DNA of 64,000 nucleotides, taken from the NCBI GenBank assembly GCA_944380395.1, contig CALWHM010000002.1:1526-65525 (forward strand). The letters are read 5' to 3'. Under the pieces are notes generated by a model. That model made no database searches. It was not told the origin of the DNA and saw only the letters and a list, made by a program, of their open reading frames with translations. A program made the translations under genes and the position numbers. The stretch is from an uncultured Clostridia bacterium. Lineage in GTDB: Bacteria > Bacillota > Clostridia > Christensenellales > UBA3700. This document shows positions 4,914 through 28,168 of this stretch, in pieces; positions within the stretch are counted from its first letter, which is position 1; each line of letters opens with the position of its first letter.

Positions 4914-4942
4914 ATGTCGGAAATGCTCGACGCTTTGCGGCG

Positions 4943-5556: not shown

Positions 5557-6513
5557 TTATACGGGAAAGACGAGTTTGCCCATACCTATGCCCTCTCTGC
5601 CGCGCAGGGGGTCGGCTATGTCGCGCGCGTTGAAGTATATGCGCACTTCTTTGCCGCTTTGCGCAAGACAGGAAGCGTATACATAGCTGCCCATCCACCC
5701 GCTCCCGGACGGAGATATAAGCGTCCTTTCAAACTCAAACTTCACGCCGTCGGAAGAAGAGAGCAGCTGAATTGCCGAGTGCGTGGCTCCTCCGCCGAGG
5801 TATATCCCGTTTTGAATGCCCGCGTATCCGTCCTTTAATTTATACACTTTCAGACAGCCCGCGCACATATTGAACAATTCGGAATTTTCATCGGGCGCTA
5901 TCACGGGCGCGGAGCTTTTCACAAAGTCCCTGTCGGGGAACTCGCTCTCCGCGCGGAAGATATAAGTAGGCTCGGAAAATTTGCAGTCGGGCAAATACGT
6001 CAGTCCGCAGGAATAGTACAGATAATACCTGCCGCCGTCCTGCATCAAAAACGGATTGGACAGGGAATATCCCCTGCCGTCCACGGCGCTTTCGTATGCG
6101 TTGTCCGCGCCCAGCACCTTATACGGCGGAGAAAATTCCGCAAGATCGCGGCTGCGCATTACGTATATCTCCGACTTCCACCCTCTGCCGGAAAACGCCG
6201 CTGCGCGCGCAAGCAGCGGCTGAACGCGCTCGAAGAACAGATAATAGTATTCGCCCGCGCGCTTTATGTCGGGGCGCATCGCCCGCGCCGCCAGCCTGCG
6301 CACGCGCCTGAACTCCACGCCGTCGTCGGAGATAAATTCGTACACTCCCTGCAGAGAGTGCGCATACAGCCGCCACTTTCCGTCGGGCGTTAGTTCGGGC
6401 GTGAGTACGGACGGATCCGCCGCCACCGTGGACAGTCCGAAATGCTTTATCACGGGATTGCCCGCATAAAGTTCCACCTTTGCCTTGTTCAATTGACTAA
6501 GCGTTATATCCAT
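5557..6513 (-). CDS. Hypothetical protein, possibly a beta-propeller glycoside-hydrolase-like fold (GH43/GH130-like)
   Basis: 318-aa ORF that abuts the downstream ADH gene. Repeated blade-like segments (YYLFFE, YYLYYS, VRIYFNA) resemble 5-bladed propeller glycosidases. No catalytic motif was confidently identified. Confidence 0.4.
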   Translation of the reverse strand: MDITLSQLNKAKVELYAGNPVIKHFGLSTVAADPSVLTPELTPDGKWRLYAHSLQGVYEFISDDGVEFRRVRRLAARAMRPDIKRAGEYYYLFFERVQPLLARAAAFSGRGWKSEIYVMRSRDLAEFSPPYKVLGADNAYESAVDGRGYSLSNPFLMQDGGRYYLYYSCGLTYLPDCKFSEPTYIFRAESEFPDRDFVKSSAPVIAPDENSELFNMCAGCLKVYKLKDGYAGIQNGIYLGGGATHSAIQLLSSSDGVKFEFERTLISPSGSGWMGSYVYASCLAQSGKEVRIYFNARDIADPLRGREGIGMGKLVFPV

Positions 6514-6516
6514 ATC

Positions 6517-7545: not shown

Positions 7546-7659
7546 AATTACCTCCGCATACATTATACCACCGCAAGACCGCCTAAGCAATACCCGCCGA
7601 AAAAATGTGTGCGGAAATTTCGCCTGCAGCATAAATTTATAAAAATTTTACTACATATG

Positions 7660-7688
7660 TTGAATTATCCGCAAAGATGTGGTATCAT
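7660..7688 (+). promoter_or_regulatory. Putative sigma-A promoter of the permease gene
   Basis: TTGAAT (7660-7665), 17-nt spacer, TGgTATCAT (-10 at 7683-7688). About 30 nt upstream of the ATG. Confidence 0.5.
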
Positions 7689-7719
7689 TTATGTGAAGTA
7701 CACAAGAAAGGAGGCATAT

Positions 7720-9339: not shown

Positions 9340-9360
9340 AAGCACATCAAACGGCAAAAA

Positions 9361-9398
9361 CAAATATCCACCCGCTTGGCAGGTGGATATTTTTTTTG
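9361..9398. terminator. Bidirectional rho-independent terminator (end of the permease gene and end of the 11-gene operon)
   Basis: Stem ATATCCACC (9364-9372) / GGTGGATAT (9382-9390). T-run at 9391-9398 on the + strand and an A-rich run upstream for the minus strand. Confidence 0.7.
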
Positions 9399-9459: not shown

Positions 9460-10617
9460 TTATCTGAAATTGTTATACTCGTCCAAAAGCTCCTGCGATA
9501 TGCTGGGAGGGATCTTTTTGAACGCGGATTCAAACATATCTCGCGTGAGCGGTATGGGCGTGGTGGAGCCGCTTGCCTGCAATTTTTCCAAAGCCATACG
9601 GCACGCTTCTTCTATTATACCGCAAAGGTCCGCGGCGGAGTAATACGCCGTCTGCGTGGCTACCATACCGATCTCCGTCTTTTTATACGAAACGCCCTTG
9701 CTCATCTCCAACACGTCCTCCGTGGTGACTCCGTCCAGCTCTATGCCCGAAAGCTTGCCCTCTATTATGGCGCGCTTTGCCTCATCGTCGGGCGGAGTGA
9801 CGTGGATAAGGTGCGAAAAACGCTTATAGCGCAGATATGCCGGGTCTATCACGTCGGGGCGGTTGGTGGCGCCTATCATTATGCGCTTGCTTCCGTCCAC
9901 GCCGAAGCCGTTTATGCGCTGCAAAAGCTCCGTGGTGACCGCCGCCTTATAGTCCTTTGTGTCCTGCGTACGGCGGCTGAATATGGATTCGCATTCGTCC
10001 ACGAATAAGATGGCTCCGTCCGGGCAGGCGTCCAGCTCCTGGAATATCTGCCTTACCGCCTGCTCCGATTCGCCCACATACGATTTGAATATATCCGCGG
10101 GAGTGACGATGAACAGCGGCAGGTTCATTGCGTTTGCTATGGCTTCCGCGAACATCGTCTTACCCGTGCCGGGCGCACCGTACATCAGCATACCCAAGCC
10201 GCCTTCCAGCTTGTAGTGCTTTAATATCTCCGGGTTTTGCGCCATAAACATAAAGCTCTTGACCAGCTTTTTCACGTTGTCAAGTCCTTTGACGTCGTCA
10301 AAAGTGGTGGTGGGCACGCGGCTTTGCATAACGGAGCCGTAACTTGCCGCGCGCTCCGTCAGACGCTTGTAGTAATTTGTATACTTTTCCACTTCGTCGT
10401 CGTTGGTGCAGCGCTGCGAAAGAGTGCGGGCTATTTGCGCTGCGCGCAGATACTCCGTGCGCAGCTTCTTCTTGGTATCTTCCGAAAGCTTGTTCTTATC
10501 CTTGGCTCCGCCGTTCAGCTCCCTTATCTTATCGGTGCTGGCGTTAAATTCCGCCTGCAAGCTTTCAATGGAATCTTCCTGCTTGTCATCCTTTTTAACC
10601 TTACCTATTCCTGCCAT
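9460..10617 (-). CDS. Classic-clade AAA+ ATPase with Vps4-like architecture (helical N-terminal domain plus a single AAA domain)
   Basis: 385 aa. Walker A GAPGTGKT (10156-10179), Walker B ILFVDECESI, pore loop KSYVGESE, and second region of homology GATNRPDVIDPAYLRYKRF. About 130 aa of helical N-terminus (MIT-like by inference). GGAGAG Shine-Dalgarno. Confidence 0.8.
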   Translation of the reverse strand: MAGIGKVKKDDKQEDSIESLQAEFNASTDKIRELNGGAKDKNKLSEDTKKKLRTEYLRAAQIARTLSQRCTNDDEVEKYTNYYKRLTERAASYGSVMQSRVPTTTFDDVKGLDNVKKLVKSFMFMAQNPEILKHYKLEGGLGMLMYGAPGTGKTMFAEAIANAMNLPLFIVTPADIFKSYVGESEQAVRQIFQELDACPDGAILFVDECESIFSRRTQDTKDYKAAVTTELLQRINGFGVDGSKRIMIGATNRPDVIDPAYLRYKRFSHLIHVTPPDDEAKRAIIEGKLSGIELDGVTTEDVLEMSKGVSYKKTEIGMVATQTAYYSAADLCGIIEEACRMALEKLQASGSTTPIPLTRDMFESAFKKIPPSISQELLDEYNNFR

Positions 10618-10630
10618 TGTAACTCTCCGA

Positions 10631-11404
10631 TCAGGCTATATCGTCTATATCCTTTACGCCCTTGCTCTTAAGGTCTTTGCTGGGTCCGGAAACACCGCCG
10701 CCTACGGTACCGCCCGCGCTTGCGCCGTCCGAAGCCGCGGAATCGGGCAGCTTGCCTTCCGCGCGCATCTTTGCCATAGTTTCTTCGATGAGCTTTCTGG
10801 CGGGGCTGGGTCCCAAAGGCTCTCCGCCGTCCTTGCCCCTCTTTTCCGCGCGTTCCTGCCTCTTTTGACGTCTGCGCTTTGCCCTGCGGTTGGAAGCCTG
10901 CATACGCTCCATCGCGTCCTGCAATTCCTCGGATATCTCCTGCGCCAGCTTGGAAAAGCCCATAACTTCGTTGAACGTCATCACTATGGAATTGCGCATA
11001 TTCCTGATGGACTTTCTCATCTTCCTCTTGCGCCTGAAACGCGCCATAAAGCCCATATCCACGGAAAGCAGGTCGGACATCACTTCATCGTTGAATCTGA
11101 GCGATTCCTGAACCACGCCCATCGCCCTTTGAATGGTGCTTATGGCGACTTGCGACATAGTCACCTGCTTTATCGCTTCCTTCATTGCCAACGCCATTTC
11201 AAGGAACATGACCATCATTTCCGTCATATAGTGGTCTTCGCCGTATTCCAAAGTGCACTTGACCGCCTCTTCCGCCAGCTTGGCAACCTGATCGTCAAAC
11301 TGCTTTGTCTTGTTCTTAATGGATATCTCGGTGGCGATGCGGGAGCCTTGGTCCTGCGCTTCTTCCTCCCTGAGATTTTCCTGTTCGTCATGGAATTTTG
11401 ACAT
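10631..11404 (-). CDS. Charged all-helical protein, candidate ESCRT-III/Snf7/PspA-like subunit
   Basis: 257 aa with an AAGGAGG Shine-Dalgarno. Heptad-like helical core, a very basic stretch (RFRRKRKMRKSIRNMRN; RRAKRRRQKRQERAEKRGK), and a flexible G/S-rich tail ending in the acidic KDIDDIA. Located 13 nt upstream of the Vps4-like ATPase. The fold assignment is inference only. Confidence 0.4.
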   Translation of the reverse strand: MSKFHDEQENLREEEAQDQGSRIATEISIKNKTKQFDDQVAKLAEEAVKCTLEYGEDHYMTEMMVMFLEMALAMKEAIKQVTMSQVAISTIQRAMGVVQESLRFNDEVMSDLLSVDMGFMARFRRKRKMRKSIRNMRNSIVMTFNEVMGFSKLAQEISEELQDAMERMQASNRRAKRRRQKRQERAEKRGKDGGEPLGPSPARKLIEETMAKMRAEGKLPDSAASDGASAGGTVGGGVSGPSKDLKSKGVKDIDDIA

Positions 11405-11417
11405 TGTTTATCCTCCT

Positions 11418-14400
11418 TTATTTGGTTACGTATTTGTTTATAACTTCGGCAAGATTGTCTTTTTCTGCCTCCGCATTGTTGACCCATTCGTGCGCGAACA
11501 CCCTGTATAACTTCCAGCCGCGGTCTTTGAGAATATTGTAGTACCGCATATTGTAGTCCAGATAGTCGTAATTATTCTTTGTGGGGGTTTCGCACCATAT
11601 GCCCAGCTGCGCCGTCCTGAAGTCGGGGGAAAGCACGGCTATGGGTATCCTGACCGAACCCTTTGTCACGCCGTACCCCAGAACTATCCTTTCGCGCGCT
11701 ATACCCAGCGACTCTATATGATCCGCCACGCTTGCGATAAAGCCCTTGCCCGGATCTGCGGACAAGAACTGATCCAAGCCGTCCTTGTTGAACTGTTCCG
11801 CCTTTACAAGGTAGTCGTGGATATATGACACGTTCGCGCCCGTTATCTCATAGGCGTGTACGGAGTGCACCAGCGTTACGCTCGACTTGGCGCGCGTGAC
11901 CGCCACGTTGAATATGCACTTGCCCAGCTTGTCGCGGTTGAGCTGACCGAACGCGTTGCTCACCCTGCCTTCCGGCGTTCTGCCGTAAGTAAGGGAGAGT
12001 ATGAGGTGTGAAGTTTCCTGACCCTGCACGGTTTCTATCGTCTTGAAGAAGATGAGTTTTTCGGGCACGTCCTTAAAGTTGCTTATGGCTTTTGTCATCT
12101 TGCCGCTCAGCTCCGCGTCCCTTTCCGTAAGGCGCTTTATCTCGTCTATCTGCTTTTCGCCGAACGCCACCACGCCTACGGACTCCTTCAGCACGCCCTT
12201 GTCTTCATCGTAGTACTTCTCAAAGTGCTCCTTGAGCAGTTCCAGCACTTTTTTGGCTTCTACCTTATTCACGCCGCCGTCGCAGCTGCCGGGCACGAAT
12301 ATATCCCTGAATCCCAGCCCTTCGTCCTTGGGCTGAGGCGCGGGGAAGGTGCGCATATGCGGATAGAACAGCTCCTGAGAATAGGAGATGAGCGATTCCG
12401 TGCGGCTCCTGTAATGGCACAGCAGCTCTTCCGCGTGGAACGCCTGATTGCGCAAAGCCAGCGTGAGCGCGGAAAGTTCGGGTTCCAGCACCAGCGTTTC
12501 CGTGCCGTCCGCCTCCACCACGCGCTTTTCGTACTGCGTCACAAAGTGCTTTATGGGCGGCATCTGCCATTCGTCGCCCACTATCACGCACTGCTTGGAT
12601 CTGAACAGCACGGGCAGCAGATTTACCGGCTCCAATTGGCTTGCTTCATCCACGATGACCACGTCAAAGTCGTTATACTCTTCCGGACGGAAGAGCACGC
12701 TTGCGGTGGACGGCGTGAGTATGAAGCATTTTTTCAGTTTCAAAATGGCGCGCGGATACTTTTTGAACAGTGAGCGCAGCGTGGCTGCGGGATCGCGTTC
12801 CGCGTCCACAAAGGCAAAGTCCGGATCTTCCGGATCTATCCCCTTCATACACTTGCGCTCTATTATGGCGGTGCTTGCCTTTTGCAGTTTTTCGTCCGCC
12901 AGCGCCAGCTCGTTCAGCGCGTTTTCCACCTTTTTGCCCAAGCCGTTGCGGCGCGCGGCGCCCATTTTTCTCATCACGCCCTCCACGGCAAGTCCGTAGA
13001 AGGAATGTTCGAATATTTCGGGAATATCGCCGCTCACCCTGCCCGACTCGAACTCCTCAAAGAAGGGAGCCAGCGGCACGGGGCACAGCTTGTCGTTTAT
13101 TATCTTGCCGTAATCGAACGCGGCGGAGAGCAGATCCCTGTTCTGCGCCTCGTTTGCCAAAATATCCAGATCGCCCAAAGTGACGTAGCGCACGCGGGTA
13201 AAGTGGTTTGCAAAATACTTTTTGCCGAACGCGCGCAGCTTGCCTATAAACGACTGCAACGCCTCTTTCACCTTTATGTCCGCGCTCTGCAGTTTCAAAA
13301 GCAGGGCGTACTTTTCTTCAAGCGTGGAGTATTTGAGCGCGGGAAGCGCGAACATCCTGCGCACGGCAAGCGCGGTGCGCGCGAACAGTTCTTCACCGCC
13401 CTCTCCCGCTATTTCCAGCTTGCGGCGCGTGCTTTCCACCTCGCGTTTGAGTTCGTCAAAGGCAAGTTCCGCCTCGCACGCGCGCCTCAGATCGCGCATG
13501 GTCATAGCGGCGCAGTCCTTTTCATCCAGCTGCGCGGCTTTCACAAGCGCCTGCACGGCAGAGCCGTAACGCGCCGCGTCGCCCGCAATGCTTTCAAAGC
13601 TCACGCCCTTGTCCATCACATTCTTTACTATGAACAGACAGTTGAGGTCCGCGTCGCTTATCTGCTTGCGCAGCAGCCTGTTCAGCAGACTGACTTGCTT
13701 TTCCGAATCGTCGTTGCACTGTTTGGCAAGGCATATCTGCTGCGTGGCGTCCACTATCTCGCGGAAGGATACGTCGCTTAAAAAGCTGAGCTTGCGCATT
13801 TCTTCCACGACTTTTTTACCCTTGAAGTCGAAAGCTCCCGGCTTTTCTCCCTCCTCGGCGTAACGGGAAAGCGCCTGCCCCGCCTCGAATATCTCCGCAA
13901 AGCTGTCATTGCACGCTTCCTGCTTGAACACCTTGCCTGCGTTGAAGATGTGCTCTGCGCGCTTTGCGACGTTCTTGTCTATCTTGTCGAGAAGTTCCAG
14001 CATTCCGTTGATAAGCTCTTGCTGCATAGGCTCGCCGTTTGCGCCCAGCAGTATGCCTATATTATCGTAAAGCGTCTTTATGTCCGCAAGCTTCATATCT
14101 TCCAGCACGCCCGCGTCCATAAGGCTTTCCTGCAAAGAAGCGCGCATTGCGGCAAGGTCGTGCCCGTTCAGCATACGCTTGAAGGGCGCAAACAGCTCGT
14201 AATTGTCAAGGGCGCGCAGCATAGCCGCAAAATCCTCGTTCCTCTCCAACACCTTGGACAGCTCTTCCTTATTCATATTGGAGCGCATAAGCTCGGATAT
14301 ATCGGCGATGTAAAACTCTTTCAACGCCTCACTGCTGCACTCAAACAGCGGAGCGATCATAGGCACAAGCGCCTCGGAATCGCAAGCCAGCGCCGCGTTG

Positions 14401-15947
14401 TCTGCAAAAGCTCCGTCCAGATCCACGCCTTCGTTCACGCCGTACCACGGGCTTTTGTATATCGGATGCGCGCCCGAACGCGTGAGCGCGTTGAAGTGAG
14501 CGCCCGCCTCTTTCACCCTTGTATACAGCGCGTTGTAGTGCTGCACGCTCAACACCCGCGCAACCTCCGGTCTTATGAATTCCACCAAAGGCAAAGGGGT
14601 TTTGAGGAAGATGTTGAGCGCGTCGTAATAGTTGACGCTCACAGCCGCCTCACCCTTGAACATTTCCGAATAATACTCGCTCAAAAGGTTGATGGCGGAA
14701 GCCCTTGCCCCGTTCGCCGCCGCCTTGTCGTGCTCGTTTTTATTGTCAAAGGAGTACTCCTTGCGGCTTTGCACCAGCTTTTTGAACTGCTGGCGCACGG
14801 AAGACGGGGACATCTTGGCGGTCTGCGCCTCCGTTTCAAAGTCCATAAGCATTACGAACTTTCTGAGCGGTTCGGGCAGTTTCGCGTTCACTTCTCCCAG
14901 CGCGGACAGCTTTTGCGAAGCCAGCAACACGCGCTTTCCGCAGGATAAAAGCGCCGCTATCATATTGGCTATGGTCAGCGTTTTACCCGTGCCGGGCGGT
15001 CCCTTTATTATGAGAGATTCGCCGTTCACCACGCGCCCTATCATCTCCTCCTGCGCACTGTCATAGGGCAGGACGAAGTCGGGCACGATTTTCAGCTCCG
15101 CCTTTGCGCCCGGCGTGTTCTCCCTGAATATGCGCTTTACCAAAGGGCTTGCGTATATCTTGTCGCGGTTGCGCTTTATATCGTAATACATACATATATC
15201 GTTATGGTTGTACTGCGCTATAGCCACCACGTTCTTGTCAAAGTCGAACACGGTATCTTCGTTGCGCTTACTGCTCCTGACATATTCGGAAACGGCGGCA
15301 AAGTAATCCGCTCCCTCTCCGAGTTTTTCCAAATCCACGGGATCGTCGAAGAAAGCCCCGCCGTTGGGATGCGGGAAATTCTCCGCCACGCCCGGTTCAA
15401 ACACCTGGCGCAGTTTGTGGATAAGGCAGGGGTTGAAATACACGTCGTCGTCCACAAACTCTATGTAAACGGGCGCGGTGCTGTTGCTCCTTATCAGCCT
15501 TATGGGGAAAATGAGCAGCGGGGAAGACACCTCGCGCACGTTGCCGCGCGATACGCTCACCTTCCACCTCAACGCGCCTATGCTGAGGAACAGCGGATTG
15601 TTGCCCTTCAGATTCAGCTCCTTATAGGCGGTTTCTATGAACTTGTCCAAAGACGCGGCGTCCTTTACGTTATCCCCGGACGCCCAGTCAAAGTCGTTCA
15701 TACGCCTGCCCACCATCTGCTCGTGCTCGGCGCCGGAAACGGCGCTGCCGCGCAGCACGGTGTTGCCCGCCTTTCCGCGCCTTTCCTTTATCACGCGCAA
15801 AGTGTACGCCGCCAAATCTTCGTAGCGCTGCTGCGAAAGATAATAAGTTGCGCCGCTGTCGCCCGCATTGAGGTCTATAAGCTTGTTTTTGCCGCCCTCA
15901 TTTATATGGAGCAGTTCTTCTATAAACGGTTCGAGATATTCCTCCAT
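11418..15947 (-). CDS. DUF4011-type Upf1/DNA2-like superfamily-1 helicase with a C-terminal REase-like (MTES_1575/DUF559-like) domain
   Basis: 1509 aa. N-terminal DUF4011-like segment (NPLFLSIGALRW...SPLLIFPIRL). Helicase motifs: Walker A KGPPGTGKT, motif II VVIVDEASQ, VGDEWQMPP, HYRSR, VETVQGQE, NVAVTRAK. C-terminal segment LGIWCE...DRGWKLYRVFAHEW. Confidence 0.8.
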   Translation of the reverse strand: MEEYLEPFIEELLHINEGGKNKLIDLNAGDSGATYYLSQQRYEDLAAYTLRVIKERRGKAGNTVLRGSAVSGAEHEQMVGRRMNDFDWASGDNVKDAASLDKFIETAYKELNLKGNNPLFLSIGALRWKVSVSRGNVREVSSPLLIFPIRLIRSNSTAPVYIEFVDDDVYFNPCLIHKLRQVFEPGVAENFPHPNGGAFFDDPVDLEKLGEGADYFAAVSEYVRSSKRNEDTVFDFDKNVVAIAQYNHNDICMYYDIKRNRDKIYASPLVKRIFRENTPGAKAELKIVPDFVLPYDSAQEEMIGRVVNGESLIIKGPPGTGKTLTIANMIAALLSCGKRVLLASQKLSALGEVNAKLPEPLRKFVMLMDFETEAQTAKMSPSSVRQQFKKLVQSRKEYSFDNKNEHDKAAANGARASAINLLSEYYSEMFKGEAAVSVNYYDALNIFLKTPLPLVEFIRPEVARVLSVQHYNALYTRVKEAGAHFNALTRSGAHPIYKSPWYGVNEGVDLDGAFADNAALACDSEALVPMIAPLFECSSEALKEFYIADISELMRSNMNKEELSKVLERNEDFAAMLRALDNYELFAPFKRMLNGHDLAAMRASLQESLMDAGVLEDMKLADIKTLYDNIGILLGANGEPMQQELINGMLELLDKIDKNVAKRAEHIFNAGKVFKQEACNDSFAEIFEAGQALSRYAEEGEKPGAFDFKGKKVVEEMRKLSFLSDVSFREIVDATQQICLAKQCNDDSEKQVSLLNRLLRKQISDADLNCLFIVKNVMDKGVSFESIAGDAARYGSAVQALVKAAQLDEKDCAAMTMRDLRRACEAELAFDELKREVESTRRKLEIAGEGGEELFARTALAVRRMFALPALKYSTLEEKYALLLKLQSADIKVKEALQSFIGKLRAFGKKYFANHFTRVRYVTLGDLDILANEAQNRDLLSAAFDYGKIINDKLCPVPLAPFFEEFESGRVSGDIPEIFEHSFYGLAVEGVMRKMGAARRNGLGKKVENALNELALADEKLQKASTAIIERKCMKGIDPEDPDFAFVDAERDPAATLRSLFKKYPRAILKLKKCFILTPSTASVLFRPEEYNDFDVVIVDEASQLEPVNLLPVLFRSKQCVIVGDEWQMPPIKHFVTQYEKRVVEADGTETLVLEPELSALTLALRNQAFHAEELLCHYRSRTESLISYSQELFYPHMRTFPAPQPKDEGLGFRDIFVPGSCDGGVNKVEAKKVLELLKEHFEKYYDEDKGVLKESVGVVAFGEKQIDEIKRLTERDAELSGKMTKAISNFKDVPEKLIFFKTIETVQGQETSHLILSLTYGRTPEGRVSNAFGQLNRDKLGKCIFNVAVTRAKSSVTLVHSVHAYEITGANVSYIHDYLVKAEQFNKDGLDQFLSADPGKGFIASVADHIESLGIARERIVLGYGVTKGSVRIPIAVLSPDFRTAQLGIWCETPTKNNYDYLDYNMRYYNILKDRGWKLYRVFAHEWVNNAEAEKDNLAEVINKYVTK

Positions 15948-15962
15948 ATTCCCTCCTTTTTA

Positions 15963-17861
15963 TCAACTCAAATTCATATAACGCGCGCACTCTTTTGCAA
16001 AAGCGTTTGCGTCCGCTTCCATTATCTGCATGCGGTAGTGCCAATAATCCCCGCCTAAGATATAGTGCGCGGAATTGTAGCTCCAGCTTTCCACCCTGCC
16101 GGCGGTTATGCCCAATTCCTCCCACATCCATTGCTTCCAGCCCGTTTTTTTCGCAGTGAACTGCAATGCGTGCAAGCTCTCGTGTGCGGCTATATCCGTC
16201 ACGTGGTACAATATATCCACGCTGCTGTTTTTGAATAATATCTCCTTTCCGCCGCCGCAGCACACGCCCACGGCAAACGCGTGATCGGGGCCCAAATGGT
16301 CGAAGTTGTCATGGAACTGCACGTCGGGAACAATGCCCGTACCCAGCGCCTGCATTATGAACTTGACAGCGGTGGTTATCGCCTGCTGCTTTTCTTCCTT
16401 TTCCTTCTTCTCCCATATGCTCCGAGAGTTGTCGCAGTCAAATACGTATGCCATAAACTTTGCGCACTTTTCGGCGGTGGTGATGTCCTCGCGCATAAGC
16501 TCTTCCGCATAAGCGCGCTCCTTTTGCGGAATGCAGTCGTAATTGAAAGGTATCTTGCCGCCCAGCTTGCTCTCAACTTCGGAAAAGAAGTCGCCCCAAT
16601 CTTCGGGAATAAATCCTTCCTGCCCTTTTGCCTCTCTCAAAAAGCTGTACGCCAGCGTCTTTCTGCCCTTATCGCACAGCCAATTGAGCACGGCGCGCCA
16701 GCTTTTGCCGCGTTTATGTTCGCGCAGCGCCAAATTCACGCCCTCATACCCCATAAACGCATATTCTTCCGGCACGCTTTCGCCTTCTGCAAGCAAGCCC
16801 TCTTCTTCAAACGCTCTTTGCACGTATTCGCGCGAAGGCAGGGCTATTTTTTCAATCGCCGCCGCGCCTTTTATTGAAGAAAGCAGTTTGTTGCCGCTTT
16901 CGTCCGTGAAGAACGCGCCTCTGCCGCCCGCCGCATAAGAGCAGGCGGCGTTTATTATCTCTCTGGCGTTGCCGCCGCGATAGCTTTCCAAATCCGTCAC
17001 GATAACGGCGCCGCCCTTTACGGCGAATTGTGCGAATATGCCGTTCAGATCCGCCGCATCCTTTCCCGCGAATTTATCCGCGCGCACTTCGTATACGGCG
17101 CAGTCGCAGTTGCACACCACAGCAAGCTCCGCCTCGTCCACGTACGGAGTGTTGAGTATTATCGCGGTACGCCTTTCCCGCCATTCGCTGCGCACGGGAT
17201 AGCGGGAGTAATTCCGCCAATCGGTGGTATATCTCAGCTCGCGCACGCCGTTCACGAAAGCTTCCGCTTCCTTCTTTATTATCTCCTGTTCCAGCTTTCT
17301 TGCAAAGGCGGACACCGTCTTAAAACGGGTGATGATGGCGTCCTTTATATCGGGAAGGTTCACGCCCTTGTTCAAAAGCGGGTCGGGAATGAGCAGAGCG
17401 TTTATCTTCTGCGTTTTTTCCTCGAATATCGCCGCCACCTGCGCGCACTCCGTCTTTGAAGAGGTCATCGGCTGACCGTCCGCAGTCATCACGCGCGCCG
17501 CCTGCATGGCGGAATCGCCCACGATTTCGGATATATCCTGCACCAGCGCCGCCACGTTGTTCAGCGCGATTTCCGTATTGACGTACCCTTTTTCGTGCGA
17601 AAGCGGCGCTTTTTCCTGCGCAAAGTCCTCTATTTCCTCCATTACTTCCACGCTGTAAGAGCTGTCCAGATACTCCAGCAAAAGCCGCTTTGCCGTAATG
17701 CGCCATTTGAGGGACTGCGCGTAACGCTTGTTTTCCTCATATGCGTAAGGGTCTTTCATCACCCCGTCAAGCCTTTTTTCCTTTTCTTCCAACTTGGCGC
17801 GGTCGGTAGAGCGGTAATACACGGCTTTTGCATCGTTCAATATGTCAAGTACGCTTTCCAT
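15963..17861 (-). CDS. HExxH metallopeptidase-like protein, paralog 1 (ImmA/IrrE-like HExxH...ExxAxxFA signature at the C-terminus)
   Basis: 632 aa. HESLH at 16170-16184, followed about 50 aa later by EADANAFA. Collinear similarity to the upstream neighbour over the whole length. GGGAGGG Shine-Dalgarno. Confidence 0.55.
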   Translation of the reverse strand: MESVLDILNDAKAVYYRSTDRAKLEEKEKRLDGVMKDPYAYEENKRYAQSLKWRITAKRLLLEYLDSSYSVEVMEEIEDFAQEKAPLSHEKGYVNTEIALNNVAALVQDISEIVGDSAMQAARVMTADGQPMTSSKTECAQVAAIFEEKTQKINALLIPDPLLNKGVNLPDIKDAIITRFKTVSAFARKLEQEIIKKEAEAFVNGVRELRYTTDWRNYSRYPVRSEWRERRTAIILNTPYVDEAELAVVCNCDCAVYEVRADKFAGKDAADLNGIFAQFAVKGGAVIVTDLESYRGGNAREIINAACSYAAGGRGAFFTDESGNKLLSSIKGAAAIEKIALPSREYVQRAFEEEGLLAEGESVPEEYAFMGYEGVNLALREHKRGKSWRAVLNWLCDKGRKTLAYSFLREAKGQEGFIPEDWGDFFSEVESKLGGKIPFNYDCIPQKERAYAEELMREDITTAEKCAKFMAYVFDCDNSRSIWEKKEKEEKQQAITTAVKFIMQALGTGIVPDVQFHDNFDHLGPDHAFAVGVCCGGGKEILFKNSSVDILYHVTDIAAHESLHALQFTAKKTGWKQWMWEELGITAGRVESWSYNSAHYILGGDYWHYRMQIMEADANAFAKECARYMNLS

Positions 17862-17870
17862 ATTCCCTCC

Positions 17871-19805
17871 CTACCTGAAATTCATCGTGTGCCACACGTC
17901 TTTTATGGCGCGTTCGCAGTCGTATGCGAAAGCCTCCGCGTCCGCTTCCAGTATCTGATTGCGATAGCTGTTATACGGTTCGTCTATTTGATGATCGTAA
18001 TTGAGTATCCACTCTTCAACGCGTGAAGACGTGACGCCCAAATCGTCATAAAGCCACTTGCTCCACCCCGTGTTTTTGGCTTGGAATTGCAGCGCGTGCA
18101 TACATTCGTGCGCCACCGTGTGCACCGTTTGGGAGAAGTCCTTTTTCAGCAAGCCGTTTTTGTACTTTATCACCTGTCCGCCGTTGCAGCACACGCCCTC
18201 CGCGTCGGAAGCGCCGGGTATTCGGTCGTGAAATTCCACCCTGCCCTTTACTTCCACGCCCATCGCGCGCAGCAACAGACGGGTGGCAAGCTCCACCCTT
18301 TCCTGCTTTTCCGTAAGTTCCACGCTCTTCCATTCGGAAGCGTCCGCGCCCGCGCCGCAGCAATACGTGACCAGCATTCCGCACCGTTGATAAAAAGTGA
18401 CGGGCGCGTTCATTATGTTCTTCACGTTCGTTATATCCAGCTGCGACACGTCGTCATAGTTGAACTCCGCCTTAGTGCCCGGCACGCCGCGCACCATCTT
18501 GGAAAAGTCGCCCCAGCCGCTGTCTATAAGCTGACTTTGAGAGGGCAGTTTTTCTATGTAATCGCGCGCCTGTTCGAATCTTCCGCGCACGTGCGCCCTG
18601 ACCGCCGCGCGCCAATCCCTGTCGCGCGAACGCTCCTTTACCGCCAAATTCAGCCCCACATATCCCATAAAAGTAAGGTAGTCGCGCATAAATTTTTCGT
18701 CTTCGGCGCTGTCTTCTATCATTCCGCGCTCGCGCAAAAACTCCTTTACGTCCGTAAAGCCGGGCATTGTGAGATACCTAAAACATATGTCTTCCGCGTT
18801 TACGATAGCCGCCGCTTCCGAATACAGCTCGTGATCGCCGCTTTCGTCTATCACATATACGCGCTGCCCGCCCTTTCCGTACGCCGCCGCCTCAGCATAG
18901 ATTATCTTTTTATTCTCGCCTTCATAACCGTTAAGTCCGGTTATCATCAGCGTGGCGCCCTGCCTTGCGAATATCTCAAAGGACTTTTTCAAGCCCGCTT
19001 CGCTTCTGCCGGCAAGCGCGCTTCTTTCCAGCACATATACGGGAGAGGAACTGTTTTGCACCACGAACAGCTCCGCTTCGTCCATAAACGGAGTGCATAA
19101 AAACACCGTGCCGGGCAGGCGCTGTGACTTGTCTATCTGCGCGGTGAACTCGTAATACTTCCACTCCGTGCTCTCGCGCAGATCGCACACTCCCGATATT
19201 ATGTCCTTATTGTTTTTGCACTCCAGCTCAAAAGCCAGCTTATCGGCGAAATCATCCACCTTTTTCAGTTCGTGCAAAAGCTCCGCCTTGACGTCGGGGA
19301 ACTTCACGCCCTTGTTGAAAAGCGGGTCGGGGAAAGCTATCTTTTCTATCTCCTCCGCCTTTTTTCTGAATACCGCCTGCACCTTGCGGCACTCCTTATC
19401 GGAAGCGGTGGCGGCTTTCCACGAATAAGTGCGCACCTTGCACGCCTGTTCGTCCGCGTCGCGCATCACTTCGTCCACCTGCCTTATAAGCCGCGCCACG
19501 GCGGACAAGACTATCGCGGTTTTGGCGTATCCTTTTTGCTCGGACAGTTTTTGTTTTTGCTCGGCAAAGTCGGCAGCCGCGGCGGCGTCGCCGCTGTCAT
19601 ACCCCTCTTCAAAGTAGATAAGAGCCAGCTTTTTAGCCTGCGTGCGCCAAAGGAGCATTTCCGCTTTTTTCGCATTGTCTTCCGAAAGCCAGCTCTGCTT
19701 TAACAGCGCGGAAAGCTCCGCCTCCGCCTTTTCAAGTTCTGAGCGCGTTACGGAATAATAATATACGAAATTGGCTTTTTCAAGCTGTTCCTTTGCCGTT
19801 GCCAT
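17871..19805 (-). CDS. HExxH metallopeptidase-like protein, paralog 2
   Basis: About 644 aa. Start set at ATG 19805 (GGGGAG 5 nt upstream), whereas the track ORF begins at GTG 19811. HECMH at 18096-18110, followed by EADAEAFA. Confidence 0.55.
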   Translation of the reverse strand: MATAKEQLEKANFVYYYSVTRSELEKAEAELSALLKQSWLSEDNAKKAEMLLWRTQAKKLALIYFEEGYDSGDAAAAADFAEQKQKLSEQKGYAKTAIVLSAVARLIRQVDEVMRDADEQACKVRTYSWKAATASDKECRKVQAVFRKKAEEIEKIAFPDPLFNKGVKFPDVKAELLHELKKVDDFADKLAFELECKNNKDIISGVCDLRESTEWKYYEFTAQIDKSQRLPGTVFLCTPFMDEAELFVVQNSSSPVYVLERSALAGRSEAGLKKSFEIFARQGATLMITGLNGYEGENKKIIYAEAAAYGKGGQRVYVIDESGDHELYSEAAAIVNAEDICFRYLTMPGFTDVKEFLRERGMIEDSAEDEKFMRDYLTFMGYVGLNLAVKERSRDRDWRAAVRAHVRGRFEQARDYIEKLPSQSQLIDSGWGDFSKMVRGVPGTKAEFNYDDVSQLDITNVKNIMNAPVTFYQRCGMLVTYCCGAGADASEWKSVELTEKQERVELATRLLLRAMGVEVKGRVEFHDRIPGASDAEGVCCNGGQVIKYKNGLLKKDFSQTVHTVAHECMHALQFQAKNTGWSKWLYDDLGVTSSRVEEWILNYDHQIDEPYNSYRNQILEADAEAFAYDCERAIKDVWHTMNFR

Positions 19806-19884
19806 TATCACTCCCCATCCGAATTTTTGTCGGGCTTGTCCCTTTTATCTTCCTTTTGTCCTTTTAATGTACTTCCCTCTGCCG

Positions 19885-19912
19885 AAAGCGGTTTCCTAAA
19901 ATATAACCGCTT
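19885..19912 (-). promoter_or_regulatory. Intercistronic stem-loop immediately after the stop codon of the coiled-coil gene
   Basis: On the minus strand, AAAGCGGTT ... AACCGCTTT forms a 9-bp stem with an 11-nt loop, directly 3' of the TAA at 19913-19915 and with no U-tract. It lies in the only long (101-nt) gap of the operon. Confidence 0.35.
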
Positions 19913-21463
19913 TTACATATCGTCGTCGGCAAGAGGTTTGCTGCCGCCGTAACGCAGCCTGTCTTTATCCTCTTCCGTTTCCTCTTCCTGCTCCACGGGA
20001 GTTTCTCCGAACAATTCGGCATCCAAAGTCGCCCTCGCGTCATTTTCTTGTTGTTCGTTTGTAATATCACCATAGAGTTCCTGCTGCGACATTTCTTCCA
20101 TATACATATCGGTCTGTCTTTTACTTTCGTTCATACGTCTAATTTCTTCTTGCTCCTTATTGGCTTGTGCAACAGCCCACGACCTTAGCTGCAAAAGCCC
20201 GTTTTGGAACTCTTCATACTCTTTTTGCGACATGCCGCCCGCTATAAATTGCTGCAATTTATCTATGCCCAGCCTTTTCATTGCCTCAGCGAACACTATG
20301 GGTTGATCCGCATAGCTTTTCAACTCACGCAAAATACTCCCGATATGGAACAGTCTGCTTTCTTTAATTCCTGCTCTTTGTTCAGTGGCGAAAATTTCTC
20401 TTTCCAGCTGGCTGTTTTGCAAACTGACTCTATCGCGCGTGTCCTTCACTCTCTTGGCAAATAAAGTTATCCTTTTATCTTCTGTGGACCCGGGCTTCAC
20501 TTCTCCGTTTCTTACTCGTATTGCCATAGCTCTATATTCCGCCATCATTTTGTCTACTTTGGCGTTATTCTCATCTATTTCAGCCTGCAATGCTTCCGTA
20601 TTGCTCATTGCTGCATTGGTTGCTTTTTCTCTATCGTAAAGCGCTTGCGCCGCCGCCAAACTCTCCTTCAAAGACCTTACGCCGACGATCGTCTTCTTTA
20701 TTCTGTCCACAAGAGGACTCTCTTCAAACGCGATGCTCCTCTTCTCTTCTTCGGTTACTCTATCGGTTTCTGCTTTTTTCCCAAATCCAAAGAGGCTCCT
20801 ATCTTTAGCGGCCTTTTTAAGCGTGCTCCATTCCCTGGCTTTTTCCACAGCTGCCTTAAGCTGTTTTACATGCTCAGATTCGCAAGTTGTTACCAGCCCG
20901 CATTTCATCCATTCATAAATACAATCTTCCACTTCCTCGGCTTTTTTCATTGCCGCCCTAGTGCTGTTGTCCCATACTCCGCTTACCGTCTCTCTAAGTT
21001 CTTTTAGCAGTTCAAGAGATTCGTTAAGCTTTTGATCGCTTATTTCCGTTATATGCATTTCAAGCAATGCTTTGGCGGTGTCCTCCGCCAGGTCTATATA
21101 TTTGAGTACTTCGCTTTTGATATCCATAGTTCCCTCCTTTACTTTGGGGCGTTGTATATTTTTTAAGGCGTCTTCGCGCTTGCCCTTATATTTACTCAAT
21201 TTCTTTTCTTTTTTCGGGTCGTCGAGTTCAACGGCTATGTCCATAAGATCTTTTATGACTTCTTCGTTGGCAAAACCGTCGTTCACGCCCTGTACGACCA
21301 AGCCGTATATATCTTCCACCAGGTTGTCGGAAAGCTCCTGACAGCCGTCTCCGCCGTATCCCCTTTTGATGATATTGGGGAAATCCTTATCAAAGTCTAT
21401 GCCGTTATTGCTTAGCGCGGAGCGTATCTGATTGATTTTTGCCTGCTTTTCCTCTCTATCCAT
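19913..21463 (-). CDS. Long coiled-coil protein with an acidic C-terminal tail (possible Snf7/PspA-like region in the C-terminal half)
   Basis: 516 aa with an AAGGAGG Shine-Dalgarno. E/K/Q-rich heptad sequence. The tail ETPVEQEEETEEDKDRLRYGGSKPLADDDM is strongly acidic. The gene is visibly AT-richer than its neighbours. Confidence 0.35.
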   Translation of the reverse strand: MDREEKQAKINQIRSALSNNGIDFDKDFPNIIKRGYGGDGCQELSDNLVEDIYGLVVQGVNDGFANEEVIKDLMDIAVELDDPKKEKKLSKYKGKREDALKNIQRPKVKEGTMDIKSEVLKYIDLAEDTAKALLEMHITEISDQKLNESLELLKELRETVSGVWDNSTRAAMKKAEEVEDCIYEWMKCGLVTTCESEHVKQLKAAVEKAREWSTLKKAAKDRSLFGFGKKAETDRVTEEEKRSIAFEESPLVDRIKKTIVGVRSLKESLAAAQALYDREKATNAAMSNTEALQAEIDENNAKVDKMMAEYRAMAIRVRNGEVKPGSTEDKRITLFAKRVKDTRDRVSLQNSQLEREIFATEQRAGIKESRLFHIGSILRELKSYADQPIVFAEAMKRLGIDKLQQFIAGGMSQKEYEEFQNGLLQLRSWAVAQANKEQEEIRRMNESKRQTDMYMEEMSQQELYGDITNEQQENDARATLDAELFGETPVEQEEETEEDKDRLRYGGSKPLADDDM

Positions 21464-22589
21464 TGAATCCTCCTTGCCTCACCGCATCCTCCAGCCTGGA
21501 CACGGCGTTCTTTATCGTCGTCTTATCCTTGCACATATATATATCGTCGTCAAGGAAAGTCAGATCTTCCCCCGCCCATGACTCTATAAACGCCGCGACA
21601 AGCTCATAGTCTGCGGCTGTAAGCGCCTTTCTTATTTTATCCAAGGCGAATTTTCCGTAAAAGCGATGCCCGCCCTTTTCATTAAAGAAAAACAGCCAAT
21701 AGTCGTTTTCCTCTTTCACGGAATATTGCAGATATTCGTTAAACGCCCTTTCGTTTTTCAGCGCTTCAAACGTCCCGTCGTCCACCTTTCCGTTTTCGTT
21801 TGCGGGCGCAACGGCAAGGAACACTCCACGCTTTATAAACTTGATGACGCCGTCACCTGCGGACTTGATTGCGGCAAGCGCCTTGAACTCCTCTCCGCTC
21901 AGCTTGAAAATGCCGAACAGCGGCGCCTTCTGACGGGAAAAGCACGAGCGCAATTTATCAAACGCCTGCTGCTGGGCGGAGGGCTTTACCCCGCCCGACT
22001 CTTCAACGGGCGGAATGTCCATATTAAGCTGCTTTTTTACTTTATCTGCATTGTCGTTGTAATTGAATTTTTGGATCTTGGTGAGCTCTTCGGGCGCGGA
22101 GGCAAGCATTTTGAGCATATACCTTGCCGCCCTTTCCCTCAATTTGGCAAAATCGTGCGTTTCCGTCACGTCTTTTTCCGCCTTGAACTTGTTTATATCG
22201 GCAAAGCACACCGCGCTGTAATAGGCATACGCCGCGCGGCAGCGGGATACCTCGCTCTTGTTCACCTCCGTGTAGTCCTTGTCGTAATAGTAGCCCAGGC
22301 GCACCGCTGCCTCCGGATTGCCCGTTGCGGCGGCTTCGCGCGTAAGCTCTATCGCCTTGTTCAGCATAGAGGTGTTTCTGCTCCCTTCACGGGTATGCAC
22401 GGCGGCGTCCAGCCAAGCATAATAACAGCTTTCCGCCAATTGGAATATCTGATCGTTTTCCTTTGTTATCACAAAGTCCGTCATAATATTGCCCATTATC
22501 GTTCTGCAATAGGGGCACGCCCACTCACCGTTATACAGTTCAAGGGGCTGTTCTATCACCTTATTACATTCTTTATTTTCGCAGTTCAT
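21456..22589 (-). CDS. Zn-ribbon plus Sel1/TPR-like repeat protein
   Basis: Start trimmed to ATG 22589 (AAGGAGG upstream). N-terminal CENKEC...CPYC four-Cys ribbon. Sel1-like motif GNPEAAVRLGYYYDKDY. About 200 aa of uncharacterised C-terminus. Overlaps the downstream gene by 8 nt. Confidence 0.5.
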   Translation of the reverse strand: MNCENKECNKVIEQPLELYNGEWACPYCRTIMGNIMTDFVITKENDQIFQLAESCYYAWLDAAVHTREGSRNTSMLNKAIELTREAAATGNPEAAVRLGYYYDKDYTEVNKSEVSRCRAAYAYYSAVCFADINKFKAEKDVTETHDFAKLRERAARYMLKMLASAPEELTKIQKFNYNDNADKVKKQLNMDIPPVEESGGVKPSAQQQAFDKLRSCFSRQKAPLFGIFKLSGEEFKALAAIKSAGDGVIKFIKRGVFLAVAPANENGKVDDGTFEALKNERAFNEYLQYSVKEENDYWLFFFNEKGGHRFYGKFALDKIRKALTAADYELVAAFIESWAGEDLTFLDDDIYMCKDKTTIKNAVSRLEDAVRQGGFNG

Positions 22590-22599
22590 CTGTTCCTCC

Positions 22600-25500
22600 T
22601 TATTCCGCGCCCTGCTCGCTTTCAGGCTGCGTAATGGTGAAGTCTGCGCGCACTTCGTCTGAGCTGTAATTGCCCGTGGCTTGCGCCAGCACATAATAAC
22701 TTCCCGCTTCGGAAGGCTTGCCTTCAAGCAATATATTTCCTTCCTGATTGTAATACTTGTAAGTTATGGTAGCGCTATTATCGCTTGCCGTAACTTCGGG
22801 AGCCTGCGGCGTTCCGTTTGCCGTGAACTCCGCTCCGTTGTTCTTCCAGGTGAGCGTCACCTGTTTTGCGGTTATCTCATACTTGCAGGAAGCCCCGCCT
22901 TCTATGACATAGTTTTTATTGCCCAAAGTCGCCGTGACCGTGTGGCTGCCCGCGTTCGTACCGTAACCGCTGTAAGAGATTTTCAAATCCTCCACATTCA
23001 CGCCGCCCGCGCTTTCCACCTTGGGACCTTGCGCGGAGCCGTTATATGTAAAGGTCTTGCTCTCCCACGTAAGGGTCACGCCCTTTTGCTTTATCGTGTA
23101 ACTCTTGGTCGCGCCGTCCGTTATAGTGTAATCGGAATTACCCAAGCGCGCCGTCACCGTATATTCGCCCGCGTTCGTGCCGTAACCGCTGTAAGAGATG
23201 TTCAAATCGTCCTTACCTTCGCCGTTTACCGTGCCGTTTGCGCTTGTCACCTTGGGATATTGCGCGGAGCCGTTATATGTAAAGGTCGTGCTCTCATCCC
23301 ACGTAAGGGTCACGCCCTTCTTTGCTATCGTGTAACTCTTGGTCGCGCTTGCAAGGTTATAGTTGCCGTTGCTTGTCGACGCGGTGACCGTATGATTTCC
23401 CGCATGAATGCCGCCGGATACGTTGTACGAAAGACTGCTTAACAAATTATCGGATTCTATCGCATTTTCAACTCTTGCCGCCGTAGGATATTGCCGAGAG
23501 CCGCTGTACGTAAAGCTCTCTTCCTCCCAAACCACGGTTGCGGTGCGCTTTGCAATGCTTAACGAAGCCGCTTCGCCATTGGTTATCACATAGTTTTTAT
23601 TGCCCAAAGTCGCCGTAACGGTATAGCTGCCCGCGTTCGTCACGGTGGCGCCGGAATGTGAGAGTATGCTGTAAGTGATACTCAGATCTCCAAGCTCGTG
23701 TCCGGAAGCCAAACCGCTTGCCGAAACCACGGTTATCGTCTTGCCCGTGCCGTCATAGGTGAAGGACTTCTGCGCGCTCCATTCAAGGGACACGCCGCGC
23801 TGAGTTATGGCAAACGAATGCGACGTTGCTTTAAGCGAGTAGTTAGTCATATTCAATGAAGGCGTGACCGTGTAACCGCTGCCTACGTTCGTTTGCTCTC
23901 CGCTGTACGTTATGCTGCTTATAACAAGGTCTTCTTCATCCGCCACCGCGCCGGAAACGCGCACCGCAACGGGGTGCTGAGGCGTATTGTTGTAGATAAA
24001 GCTGCTTGCGTTCCAGCCCGTCACTTCCACTTGCTTCTTGGAAATATTATAGGAATGCGACTGCGCGGAAGCAAAGTAATAGTTGCTGTTTGCCGGAAGA
24101 GTGACGCTCACGCTGCTTCCGCCCGCGTTCACGCCGCCGTTCACGGAGTATATGAGCGAAGCCAGCACGGCGGATTCTTCGCCTGTGACTGCGTCGTTCA
24201 AAGACGTGGCGCGCGGATATTGCTGCGTGCCGTTATAGGTAAATGAAGCGCTCTGCCAGCCGCCCACGGTTATATCGCGCTTGTTTATGGTCACCTGCGC
24301 CGTGGGGTTGGTCAGCACATAGTTGGCGCCCGCAGAAGCCGTGACCGTATAGCTGCCCGCGTTTACGGGGGAACCGCTCATAGTCGCGTCAAACGTGCCG
24401 TCGTCGCCCACTCCGTTCACCTTTGCGGTGGGATATTGCGCCTTTCCGTTATATTCAAAGGCGGTGGTACTGCCCCACTCCACGCTCGCCTCTGCGGGAG
24501 CAATGGTAAAGGCTTTGCTTGCGGAAGCTTCGGACACCCGATAAAGCTCGTCGCTCTCTCCCGTCACGGCTACGTATACCGTATAATTACCGGCGTTTTT
24601 CACATAGTTGCTGCCGTATGACACGGAATACTTTATCTCGTCCTCTCCCACTGCGGCGCCTTCCGCGGGCGTGCATACCGCGCTCTGTTCAACTCCCGTA
24701 TATTCGGAAGGAAGCTCCCAATCAAAGTCTATCGTCTTTTTGTCCACCGCCACTTCCACTTTCTGCGAAGTAACGCTTTTAAGGGAAGTTATCTGCGGCG
24801 CGGCGGCAGTTACCGTCACGGTATAGTTTCCGCTTTGAGCGGGAGTGAGTACGCCCAAATCAAGCGAATCGCCCGTTTCACCGCTCATAACGCCGCCGTC
24901 GTTTGACCACGCGTAAGTGAGAGTAAAGTCTTTTGACGGCGCCACGGCGTTGGAGTTGAGCACTATCTCATCTCCGTACACAAAGGACGTGCCGCCGAGA
25001 GTGGAATCCACGTTCAGCTCCGCCTCATTCACTTCCCATTGAGGATACACTATCACGGAGTTCCTGCTTGAAGCTTCACTGAGCATACTCGTAAGGGACG
25101 TGCGTATGGGTGACACCGCGCCCGTTTCCGTCCAGGAATAATTCCAGCCCGACACGGAAAAGCCCTCCCTTTGGGGAATGGAGCTTAGCAATTCGTTTGC
25201 GGTGCTGGGCACGGCGTAGCGATAGCCCAGCGTGCGCCCTTCCACCACGGTGTTCTTGTAAGAGGCGTCCGTTTCGAATACGTCGTCGTTATCCTCTCCT
25301 ATATATACCTTATATATCTTTTCAAACTGCACCTGCACGGACGCGCCGCCCTCTATCGTCTGTCCTTCTATGGCGCTGCCCGACGCGTCTAAGGGAGCGG
25401 AGAAAATGCGCCCGTCAAAGTTGACGTCGTTCCAATAAAGGTCTTCCGCGGAAGTTTTGTCCGAATGCGCCACATAGGGGAATTCGTCCTCATATGCGCT

Positions 25501-28163: not shown

Positions 28164-28168
28164 AAGCG

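Follow-up and report, generated by a model that had tools for sequence, protein, structure and literature searches.

Two adjacent genes in a 64,000-nucleotide (nt) stretch of DNA from an uncultured Clostridia bacterium (GenBank assembly GCA_944380395.1, contig CALWHM010000002.1, positions 1,526 to 65,525; the whole stretch is called the window) encode paralogous proteins, named A and B here, of an unannotated protease-like family that lies outside every curated family. Each protein combines a helical N-terminal domain, a middle domain modelled as an AAA+ fold without the ATPase motifs and a C-terminal domain modelled as a zincin-like metallopeptidase, and the family is strictly linked to one large gene cassette that contains a Cdc48-like AAA+ ATPase. 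We tentatively favour the reading that the proteins are cytoplasmic zinc-metalloprotease subunits coupled to the AAA+ unfoldase of this cassette, in an operon probably directed against phages or other mobile elements. In the searchable literature we found no description of the protease family or of the cassette, which may be a new candidate defence system of gut Clostridia.

Two collinear paralogs in tandem

A and B are paralogous, with a likeness far beyond chance. BLASTP placed them in one collinear end-to-end alignment with 227 of 640 identities (35%), 52% positives and an E-value of 3e-124, which bears out an earlier annotation of this DNA (the original prediction) that had described adjacent paralogs 9 nt apart, collinear over their full length. 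Its positions for the HExxH codons, 16170-16184 in A and 18096-18110 in B, are exact. The sequence blocks it had listed as shared are also present, except that GWGDFS is the version of B only and A reads DWGDFF.

The open reading frame (ORF) of B extends over 17871..19811, and because a GGGGAG ribosome-binding site precedes it, the ATG at 19805 is taken as the probable start. The gap between B and A covers 17862-17870, and the GGGAGG ribosome-binding site of A overlaps the stop codon of B. The next gene (gene 8 of the cassette) begins 15 nt after A with its own AGGAGG site.

A conserved family outside the curated collections

Scans of A and B against Pfam, NCBIfam and PADLOC gave no significant match, and a sub-threshold SprT-like match was seen for B only. 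The word-indexed homologue search returned eight clusters, and the same kind of search with a profile of the C-terminal domain returned a single, uninformative match. An exhaustive profile search, which covered 1.84 billion cluster representatives, delimited a family of 269 representatives at E<=1e-3, including 118 at E<=1e-30. About 100 members are full length (625-690 amino acids, aa), while a more distant group of 570-610 aa lacks part of the N-terminus.

Conservation was taken from an alignment of 109 sequences, whose members are 16-70% identical to B (residue numbers below are those of B). The alignment shows no variation at H566, E567, H570, Q573, Y614 and E620, and at least 97% conservation at A623 and F626. 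The residues conserved in at least 90% are P239, E243, P348, G381, G384, W431, Y450, D451, R503, G537, C539, G543, W599, A623 and F626. Because these residues are invariant or nearly so across the alignment, the HExxH is not a chance motif.

A zincin-like C-terminal domain closest in sequence to SprT/WLM

An AlphaFold2 model of B, made with the family alignment, has a predicted local distance difference test (pLDDT) of 94.1 and a predicted template-modelling score of 0.84. In its C-terminal domain, three helices and three strands lead to the long HExxH helix, which is followed by three short helices and by a long helix beginning at E620, so that 50 residues with three helices between them separate the HExxH from this Glu. 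A separate model of residues 416-632 of A (217 aa, pLDDT 91.9) shows a zincin topology like that of B. The original prediction had called the HExxH plus downstream Glu metallopeptidase-like, and the zincin topology in models of pLDDT 92-94 and the strong enrichment of small metallopeptidases among its weak fold matches support this description.

A profile of 42 C-terminal domains was compared with the sequences of the PDB, and it matched Wss1p (E 0.0047) and the SprT domain of Spartan (E 0.0064), besides another WLM protease and oligopeptidase A. The Wss1/Spartan alignment spans the strand-turn-strand ahead of the active-site helix together with the HExxH itself (agGlCcdGGk.I.y ... lHE..Ha). 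When the 42 domains were run singly against Pfam, 19 matched SprT-like, 11 DUF3920, 6 DUF6782 (a putative metallopeptidase family), 2 WLM and 2 M48. The best E-values were 5.5e-5 for SprT-like and 5.4e-6 for WLM; all SprT-like matches are below threshold (for B, 14.3 bits against a cut-off of 25.6). None of the 42 domains matched Peptidase_M78 or DUF4157 at E<=1, and the full-length proteins did not match M78 either. Among predicted viral structures, small metallopeptidases dominate the top fold matches, with ten SprT-like models from phages, an M48 model and an IrrE N-terminal-like model. The last superposes best (probability 1.00, template-modelling score 0.63 of the target, E 0.11, root-mean-square deviation (rmsd) 4.8 over 148 columns).

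As modelled, the C-terminal domain is therefore best described as a minimal zincin-like fold, closest by sequence to SprT/WLM. The zinc ligand signature of SprT/WLM is HExxHx(5-14)H. Among the family members there is no conserved His after the HExxH, and position 574, His in the consensus, is Phe in both window proteins. In having a Glu on a later helix in place of the third histidine found in SprT/WLM, the domain appears to recall gluzincins such as M78. Zinc binding and proteolysis by this domain are predicted from these residues.

A degenerate AAA+ domain and a helical N-terminus

In the model of B, residues 1-200 form a helical bundle, residues 230-345 fold into an alpha/beta domain with five strands, and residues 350-420 make up a helical lid. 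Foldseek against the PDB matched this protein to classic-clade AAA+ ATPases in 47 of the first 50 matches, with probabilities up to 1.00. They include FIGNL1, katanin, spastin, Msp1, Vps4, p97, proteasomal Rpt subunits and AFG3L2, and the best AAA superpositions cover 176-192 columns with an rmsd of 5.2-5.8. Neither Walker A (GxxGxGK[ST]) nor Walker B (hhhhDE) is present in any of the 24 sequences inspected: all of them carry L[CN]TPFx[DE]EAxL in place of a P-loop and have G/D/A-L/A/F instead of DE at the end of the Walker-B strand. Because both motifs are missing, the domain should be unable to bind or hydrolyse ATP in the canonical way, and on the model it is an AAA+ fold turned pseudo-ATPase.

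The original prediction had left the large N-terminal regions unassigned. This no longer applies to the middle part, which is now read as the degenerate AAA+ domain, while the N-terminal helical bundle still belongs to no assigned fold family. An MIT domain was considered for the N-terminus and rejected: with the full-length profile, the Vps4B MIT domain and full-length Vps4B matched at E about 0.003-0.016, standing among designed helical bundles, and these matches disappeared with a profile of the N-terminus only. Single-sequence searches of solved structures with A and B gave noise only. No transmembrane helix was found in either protein, the maximum 19-residue hydropathy being 1.26 in A and 1.04 in B.

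Strict linkage to one cassette of gut Clostridia

The pair lies in a co-directional block of roughly 23 kb (9460..33107) with tight, ribosome-binding-site-coupled junctions (Table 1). A promoter-like site (33167..33139) stands ahead of it and a strong terminator with a 14-bp stem (9392..9362) behind it. This cassette has 10 genes, and 11 in the window. A genome scan for relatives with a 9-sequence alignment found 40 species-level genomes, and across the roughly 50 related loci compared (the 40 genomes plus metagenome contigs) the order of the genes never changes. The protease gene is always the sixth or seventh of the cassette and always directly upstream of a gene 8-type helicase-nuclease, with gaps of 9-90 nt, and the family was never seen outside the cassette. 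Even the most divergent relatives, of 570-609 aa, sit in the same kind of cassette.

The cassette was found in metagenome-assembled genomes (MAGs) of gut Clostridia only, and most named carriers belong to Christensenella/Christensenellaceae, Borkfalkia/Borkfalkiaceae, Coproplasma, Alloclostridium and Limadaptatus. Its flanking genes vary from genome to genome, and for this reason it looks like a mobile island. PADLOC and NCBIfam recognise the helicases and the ATPase only, and 7 of the 11 cassette genes in the window are matched by none of Pfam, PADLOC and NCBIfam. The best conserved cassette gene is gene 10 (55-86% identity).

Table 1. Features of the protease pair and of the cassette genes in the window
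Feature	Coordinates	Strand	Description
Paralog A	15963..17861	minus	632 aa, ATG start; downstream copy, faster-evolving, without C-terminal tail and R503
Paralog B	17871..19805	minus	644 aa; upstream copy, slower-evolving, keeps the WHTxxF C-terminal tail
A HESLH	16170..16184	minus	aa 560-564
B HECMH	18096..18110	minus	aa 566-570; invariant Q573 follows
A EADANAFA	15996..16019	minus	aa 615-622
B EADAEAFA	17925..17948	minus	aa 620-627; E620 is the putative third zinc ligand; invariant Y614 just upstream
B N-terminal domain	19191..19805	minus	residues 1-205, all-helical (DSSP of the model)
B middle domain	18546..19133	minus	residues 225-420, predicted AAA+-like alpha/beta domain plus helical lid, without Walker A/B (Foldseek, motif table)
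A middle domain	16629..17189	minus	residues about 225-411, same predicted pseudo-AAA+ domain (collinear alignment with B, motif table)
B C-terminal domain	17874..18443	minus	residues 455-644, predicted zincin-like metallopeptidase domain (AlphaFold2 model, profile and fold matches)
A C-terminal domain	15966..16517	minus	residues about 449-632, predicted zincin-like domain (separate AlphaFold2 model)
Gene 0	30966..33107	minus	713 aa, weakly Hsp70/BcrAD (ASKHA)-like; first cassette gene, also first in the distant locus L053 (Coproplasma)
Gene 1	28169..30985	minus	SNF2-family helicase, DrmD/BrxHI/DpdE-like
Gene 2	26481..28163	minus	560 aa, no recognisable domain
Gene 3	22600..26484	minus	1294 aa, internally repeated MBG/Ig-like modules
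Gene 4	21456..22589	minus	about 377 aa (377 aa in contig L008), N-terminal CxxC...CxxC zinc ribbon, weak Sel1/TPR signal
Gene 5	19913..21463	minus	516 aa, helical, acidic tail, apparently swapped or hypervariable segment
Gene 8	11418..15947	minus	1509 aa, DUF4011 + SF1 helicase (AAA_11/AAA_12) + MTES_1575 nuclease, Hhe/ProA/PDC-S37-like
Gene 9	10631..11404	minus	257 aa, helical, basic stretch, G/S/A-rich linker, conserved C-terminal IDDI[LIA]
Gene 10	9460..10617	minus	385 aa, Cdc48/VCP-like AAA+ ATPase, Walker A GAPGTGKT and Walker B DECES intact

One duplication with complementary residue losses

The protease gene is single-copy in 36 of the 40 species-level genomes. The pair occurs in the window lineage only, represented by the 98%-identical contigs L008 and L009 and by L010, L013 (Candidatus Alloclostridium intestinigallinarum) and L014. 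Compared with L010, L013 and L014, the orthologues of B are 63-70% identical and those of A 51-55%. A neighbour-joining tree places the A and B clades as sisters with mirrored internal branching and gives A the longer branches. Because the two sister clades mirror each other, one duplication explains the pair, and it is younger than the separation from the Borkfalkia-type single-copy genes.

In the four pair-carrying genomes, none of the six invariant residues has been lost from either copy. At other positions the losses of A and B differ. A lost R503, which is present in 98% of the family, to Ala in three of four genomes, lost D451 to Ala or Gly in three of four, and lacks the extreme C-terminal tail W-[HN]-x-[IL]-[DE]-[FL]-[ED] in four of four; B lost Y606, which A keeps. 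Relative to L008, the synonymous and non-synonymous codon differences number 32 and 7 for B, 26 and 9 for A, 59 and 15 for the helicase, and 24 and 6 for the ATPase. This synonymous excess, similar to that of the neighbouring genes, indicates that A and B are both under purifying selection, and the view that neither copy is dead is supported by it and by the six retained residues.

Complementary loss of residues is expected when a homo-oligomer becomes a hetero-oligomer, and for this reason an A/B heteromer is plausible. Judged from these losses, A and B plausibly work as a hetero-oligomer in the window lineage. The heteromeric sensor/protease of the original prediction can thus be kept for this lineage and does not hold in general: most genomes carry a single copy, which counts against any need for a heteromer in the basic function.

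Other features of the cassette and the window

Three cassette proteins end in short, conserved acidic/hydrophobic tails that may be docking peptides: IDDI[LIA] in gene 9 (10631..10645), [LS]xDDD[KM] in gene 5 (19913..19930) and W[HN]x[IL][DE][FL][ED] in B (17874..17897). Gene 5 and B are separated by 107 nt (19806..19912), against 4-40 nt in single-copy relatives, and the gap holds a hairpin, GCGGTT...AACCGC, that lacks a T-run. Gene 5 itself contains about 766 nt (20009..20774, residues 230-485) that do not align with L008, in a contig that is otherwise 97.4-97.9% identical. Its protein is 63% identical to the L008 counterpart, the neighbours being 97-100% identical, and the local guanine-cytosine (GC) content dips to 0.46, so this segment seems to be a module that was swapped or is hypervariable. 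Within gene 3, DNA repeats of about 180 nt (22948..23348) are 82-83% identical, and several offset tblastn self-matches fit tandem Ig/MBG-like modules. In L010, the repeat protein and the helicase-nuclease are interrupted (3563..7352 and 13847..18222), with A, B and the other genes intact; this is either a decaying copy or an assembly error, and the closely related L014 is intact.

Relaxed Pfam scans of genes 2, 4 and 5 gave noise only. No significant helix-turn-helix (HTH) or Xre match was found in any cassette gene or flank, the nearest being a sub-threshold DUF2250 in gene 5 (E 0.039). An ESCRT-III-like identity for gene 9 was considered and dropped, as no PDB match supported it. A 423-aa ORF at 8092..9363 was also rejected as a cassette gene: it lies beyond the terminator and overlaps an ORF on the opposite (plus) strand (7252..9339), and in L008 a xanthine/uracil permease stands on the opposite strand where this ORF would lie.

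The window is chromosomal, with the housekeeping genes carA, carB, glnA type III, metG, tatD and ksgA flanking the region of the pair. At 33332..37381, a 1349-aa ORF apparently fuses the carbamoyl-phosphate synthase large subunit to a diaminopimelate epimerase domain. Besides, the segment 42001..46000, which includes a pentapeptide-repeat gene, has a GC content of 0.42 against about 0.53 and may be foreign DNA.

Mechanism and alternative explanations

Under the favoured reading, two of the zinc ligands and the catalytic base would come from the HExxH, the third ligand would probably be the invariant Glu that lies 50 residues further on, and the site would be lined by the invariant Gln and Tyr. 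The dead AAA+ module would dock onto, or intercalate into, the ring of the Cdc48-like AAA+ ATPase, and substrates unfolded by the ATPase would be fed to the zincin site. Together the two proteins would amount either to an AAA protease of the FtsH kind whose parts are encoded by two genes or to a prokaryotic counterpart of Cdc48-Wss1/p97-SPRTN, and the protease would act beside the SNF2 protein and the Hhe-like helicase-nuclease in a nucleic-acid-targeting defence machine. FtsH-family proteases (M41) have the same module order in one polypeptide, an AAA+ fold followed by a zinc peptidase, and AFG3L2 is among the fold matches with about 480 aligned columns. Unlike FtsH, the proteins described here have no Walker A/B, no Peptidase_M41 match and no transmembrane segments, and the intact AAA+ protein comes from a separate gene.

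Several results weigh against this reading. No sequence match of the zincin domain reaches the threshold of any curated family, and Foldseek of the isolated C-terminal domain against the PDB returned nothing significant (the best was deuterolysin, E 0.26). The E-values of the AAA fold matches are modest, at about 1e-2. When the family was aligned by hhalign with the AAA ATPase of its own cassette, the register was as expected and the match was weak (E 0.039, probability 1.3%), a probability at which the alignment is unusable as stand-alone evidence. No direct evidence singles out the AAA ATPase, and not the neighbouring helicase-nuclease, as the partner of the protease. Finally, the defence role rests on context: all carriers are uncultured MAGs, and 7 of the 11 cassette genes in the window have no PADLOC model.

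The main rival borrows its logic from IetAS, which Gao and colleagues reportedly presented in 2020 as an anti-phage system. In this toxin-antitoxin explanation, the metalloprotease would be an abortive-infection toxin, and the Cdc48/IetA-like ATPase, perhaps with the SNF2 protein, would restrain it until phage infection. IetAS works with a protease as toxin and an ATPase as antitoxin, and gene 10 does match IetA of PADLOC (1.2e-32) and IteA of NCBIfam (4.6e-29). In ietHAS, the nearest experimentally validated analogue that we can name for the cassette, anti-phage activity requires each of the protease, the IetA AAA ATPase and the DrmD-like SNF2 helicase, the ATPase acting as antitoxin and the essential helicase also restraining toxicity (PMC13069673). 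The cassette holds the same three ingredients in one operon, a protease, a classic-clade AAA ATPase and a DrmD-like SNF2 protein. However, the AAA match is generic: gene 10 scores higher to Cdc48/VCP (3e-74), and its IteA score of 101.7 lies far under the cut-off of 510. IetS is an S8 serine protease, whereas the protease here is a predicted zincin, and no IetS or S8 match was found among the cassette proteins. Moreover, IetAS-type systems have two or three genes, not 10; seven further conserved cassette genes have no IetAS counterpart, and two genes separate the protease gene from the AAA gene. We consider this explanation unlikely.

Ranked second, and somewhat less probable again, is a DNA-dependent protease like Wss1/SPRTN, which would strip tightly or covalently bound proteins (such as phage terminal or DNA-protecting proteins or stalled enzymes) from DNA and so clear the way for the SF1 helicase-nuclease and the SNF2 protein. 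SprT/WLM proteins (Wss1, Spartan/SPRTN; PF10263, PF08325) are the only relatives at the sequence level and share the small zincin fold with the C-terminal domain. Eukaryotic Cdc48/p97 partners Wss1/SPRTN, and the operon described here also encodes a Cdc48-like ATPase. The constant position of the gene directly before the DUF4011 helicase-nuclease fits as well. On the other side, the third His of the HExxHx(5-14)H signature is absent and a Glu on a later helix is conserved instead, the SprT/WLM scores stay below the gathering cut-offs, and the zincin domain is fused to pseudo-AAA+ and helical domains in a protein with no recognisable DNA-binding region.

The original prediction had proposed a switch protease of the ImmA/IrrE type (M78, COG2856) that cleaves a repressor or another operon product upon stress or phage infection. 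The likeness it noted has partial support: the HExxH with a later-helix Glu and then A..FA appears to be common to both, the downstream ExDAxAF pattern resembles the M78 signature, and one phage IrrE N-terminal-like model is the best-superposing fold match. IrrE-like CapP proteases reportedly regulate CBASS (bioRxiv 10.1101/2022.04.27.489752). The rest of the proposal was not supported. M78 profiles match none of the 42 domains at E<=1 and the best sequence relatives are Wss1p and Spartan; neither the cassette nor its flanks gave a significant HTH/Xre match that could point to a substrate or partner; compared with ImmA/IrrE, the protein is four times as large and carries a pseudo-AAA domain; and three helices lie within the 50 residues between HExxH and Glu. 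This explanation, third in our ranking, is very improbable. It is likewise very improbable that the zincin-like domain is non-proteolytic, being another zinc-dependent hydrolase or a structural or peptide-binding module in a protein that is mainly a scaffold or adaptor of the helicase-ATPase machinery. The lack of a significant match to a solved peptidase fold, the AAA module that is already a pseudoenzyme and the three docking-like C-terminal tails would suit such a role. However, H-E-H, Q, Y and E are invariant down to 16% identity, in both paralogs, and because of this invariance an active catalytic site is expected rather than a scaffold.

The helicase-nuclease connects the cassette to a further group of known systems. 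Hhe is annotated as a single-gene system. Gene 8 has DUF4011, an SF1 helicase and a C-terminal nuclease in common with Hhe, ProA and PDC-S37 and matches all three (PDC-S37 5.9e-112, ProA 6e-113). In contrast to PDC-S37, a single-gene system judging by its PADLOC name, the helicase here belongs to a fixed 10-gene cassette, and its scores are far under the cut-offs (378 against an equivalog cut-off of 1500). The cassette is a candidate new multi-gene defence system because it unites parts that are seen separately elsewhere, in DISARM/BREX/Dpd (SNF2), Hhe/ProA and IetAS.

Significance

The arrangement of a helical domain, a predicted dead AAA+ domain and a SprT/IrrE-like zincin would join the short list of AAA-associated proteases as a new one, and it occurs only as a fixed part of a large unannotated operon. 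Clostridia of the Christensenellaceae/Borkfalkiaceae type are abundant gut bacteria, and their immunity is almost unstudied experimentally. Should the protease indeed work with the Cdc48-like ATPase, it would represent a bacterial analogue of the DNA-protein-crosslink protease module known from eukaryotes. A bolder view, which we regard as unlikely, would make the cassette an undescribed 10-gene immune machine, in which a Cdc48-like unfoldase and a pseudo-AAA-fused SprT-like protease form the prokaryotic counterpart of Cdc48-Wss1/p97-SPRTN and, with two helicases and a nuclease, destroy invading DNA-protein complexes; A and B would then be caught in the change from a homo-oligomeric protease ring to one that is obligately hetero-oligomeric. 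The lineage-specific duplication of A and B, with its complementary losses, is a natural test of how paralogous oligomers become interdependent.

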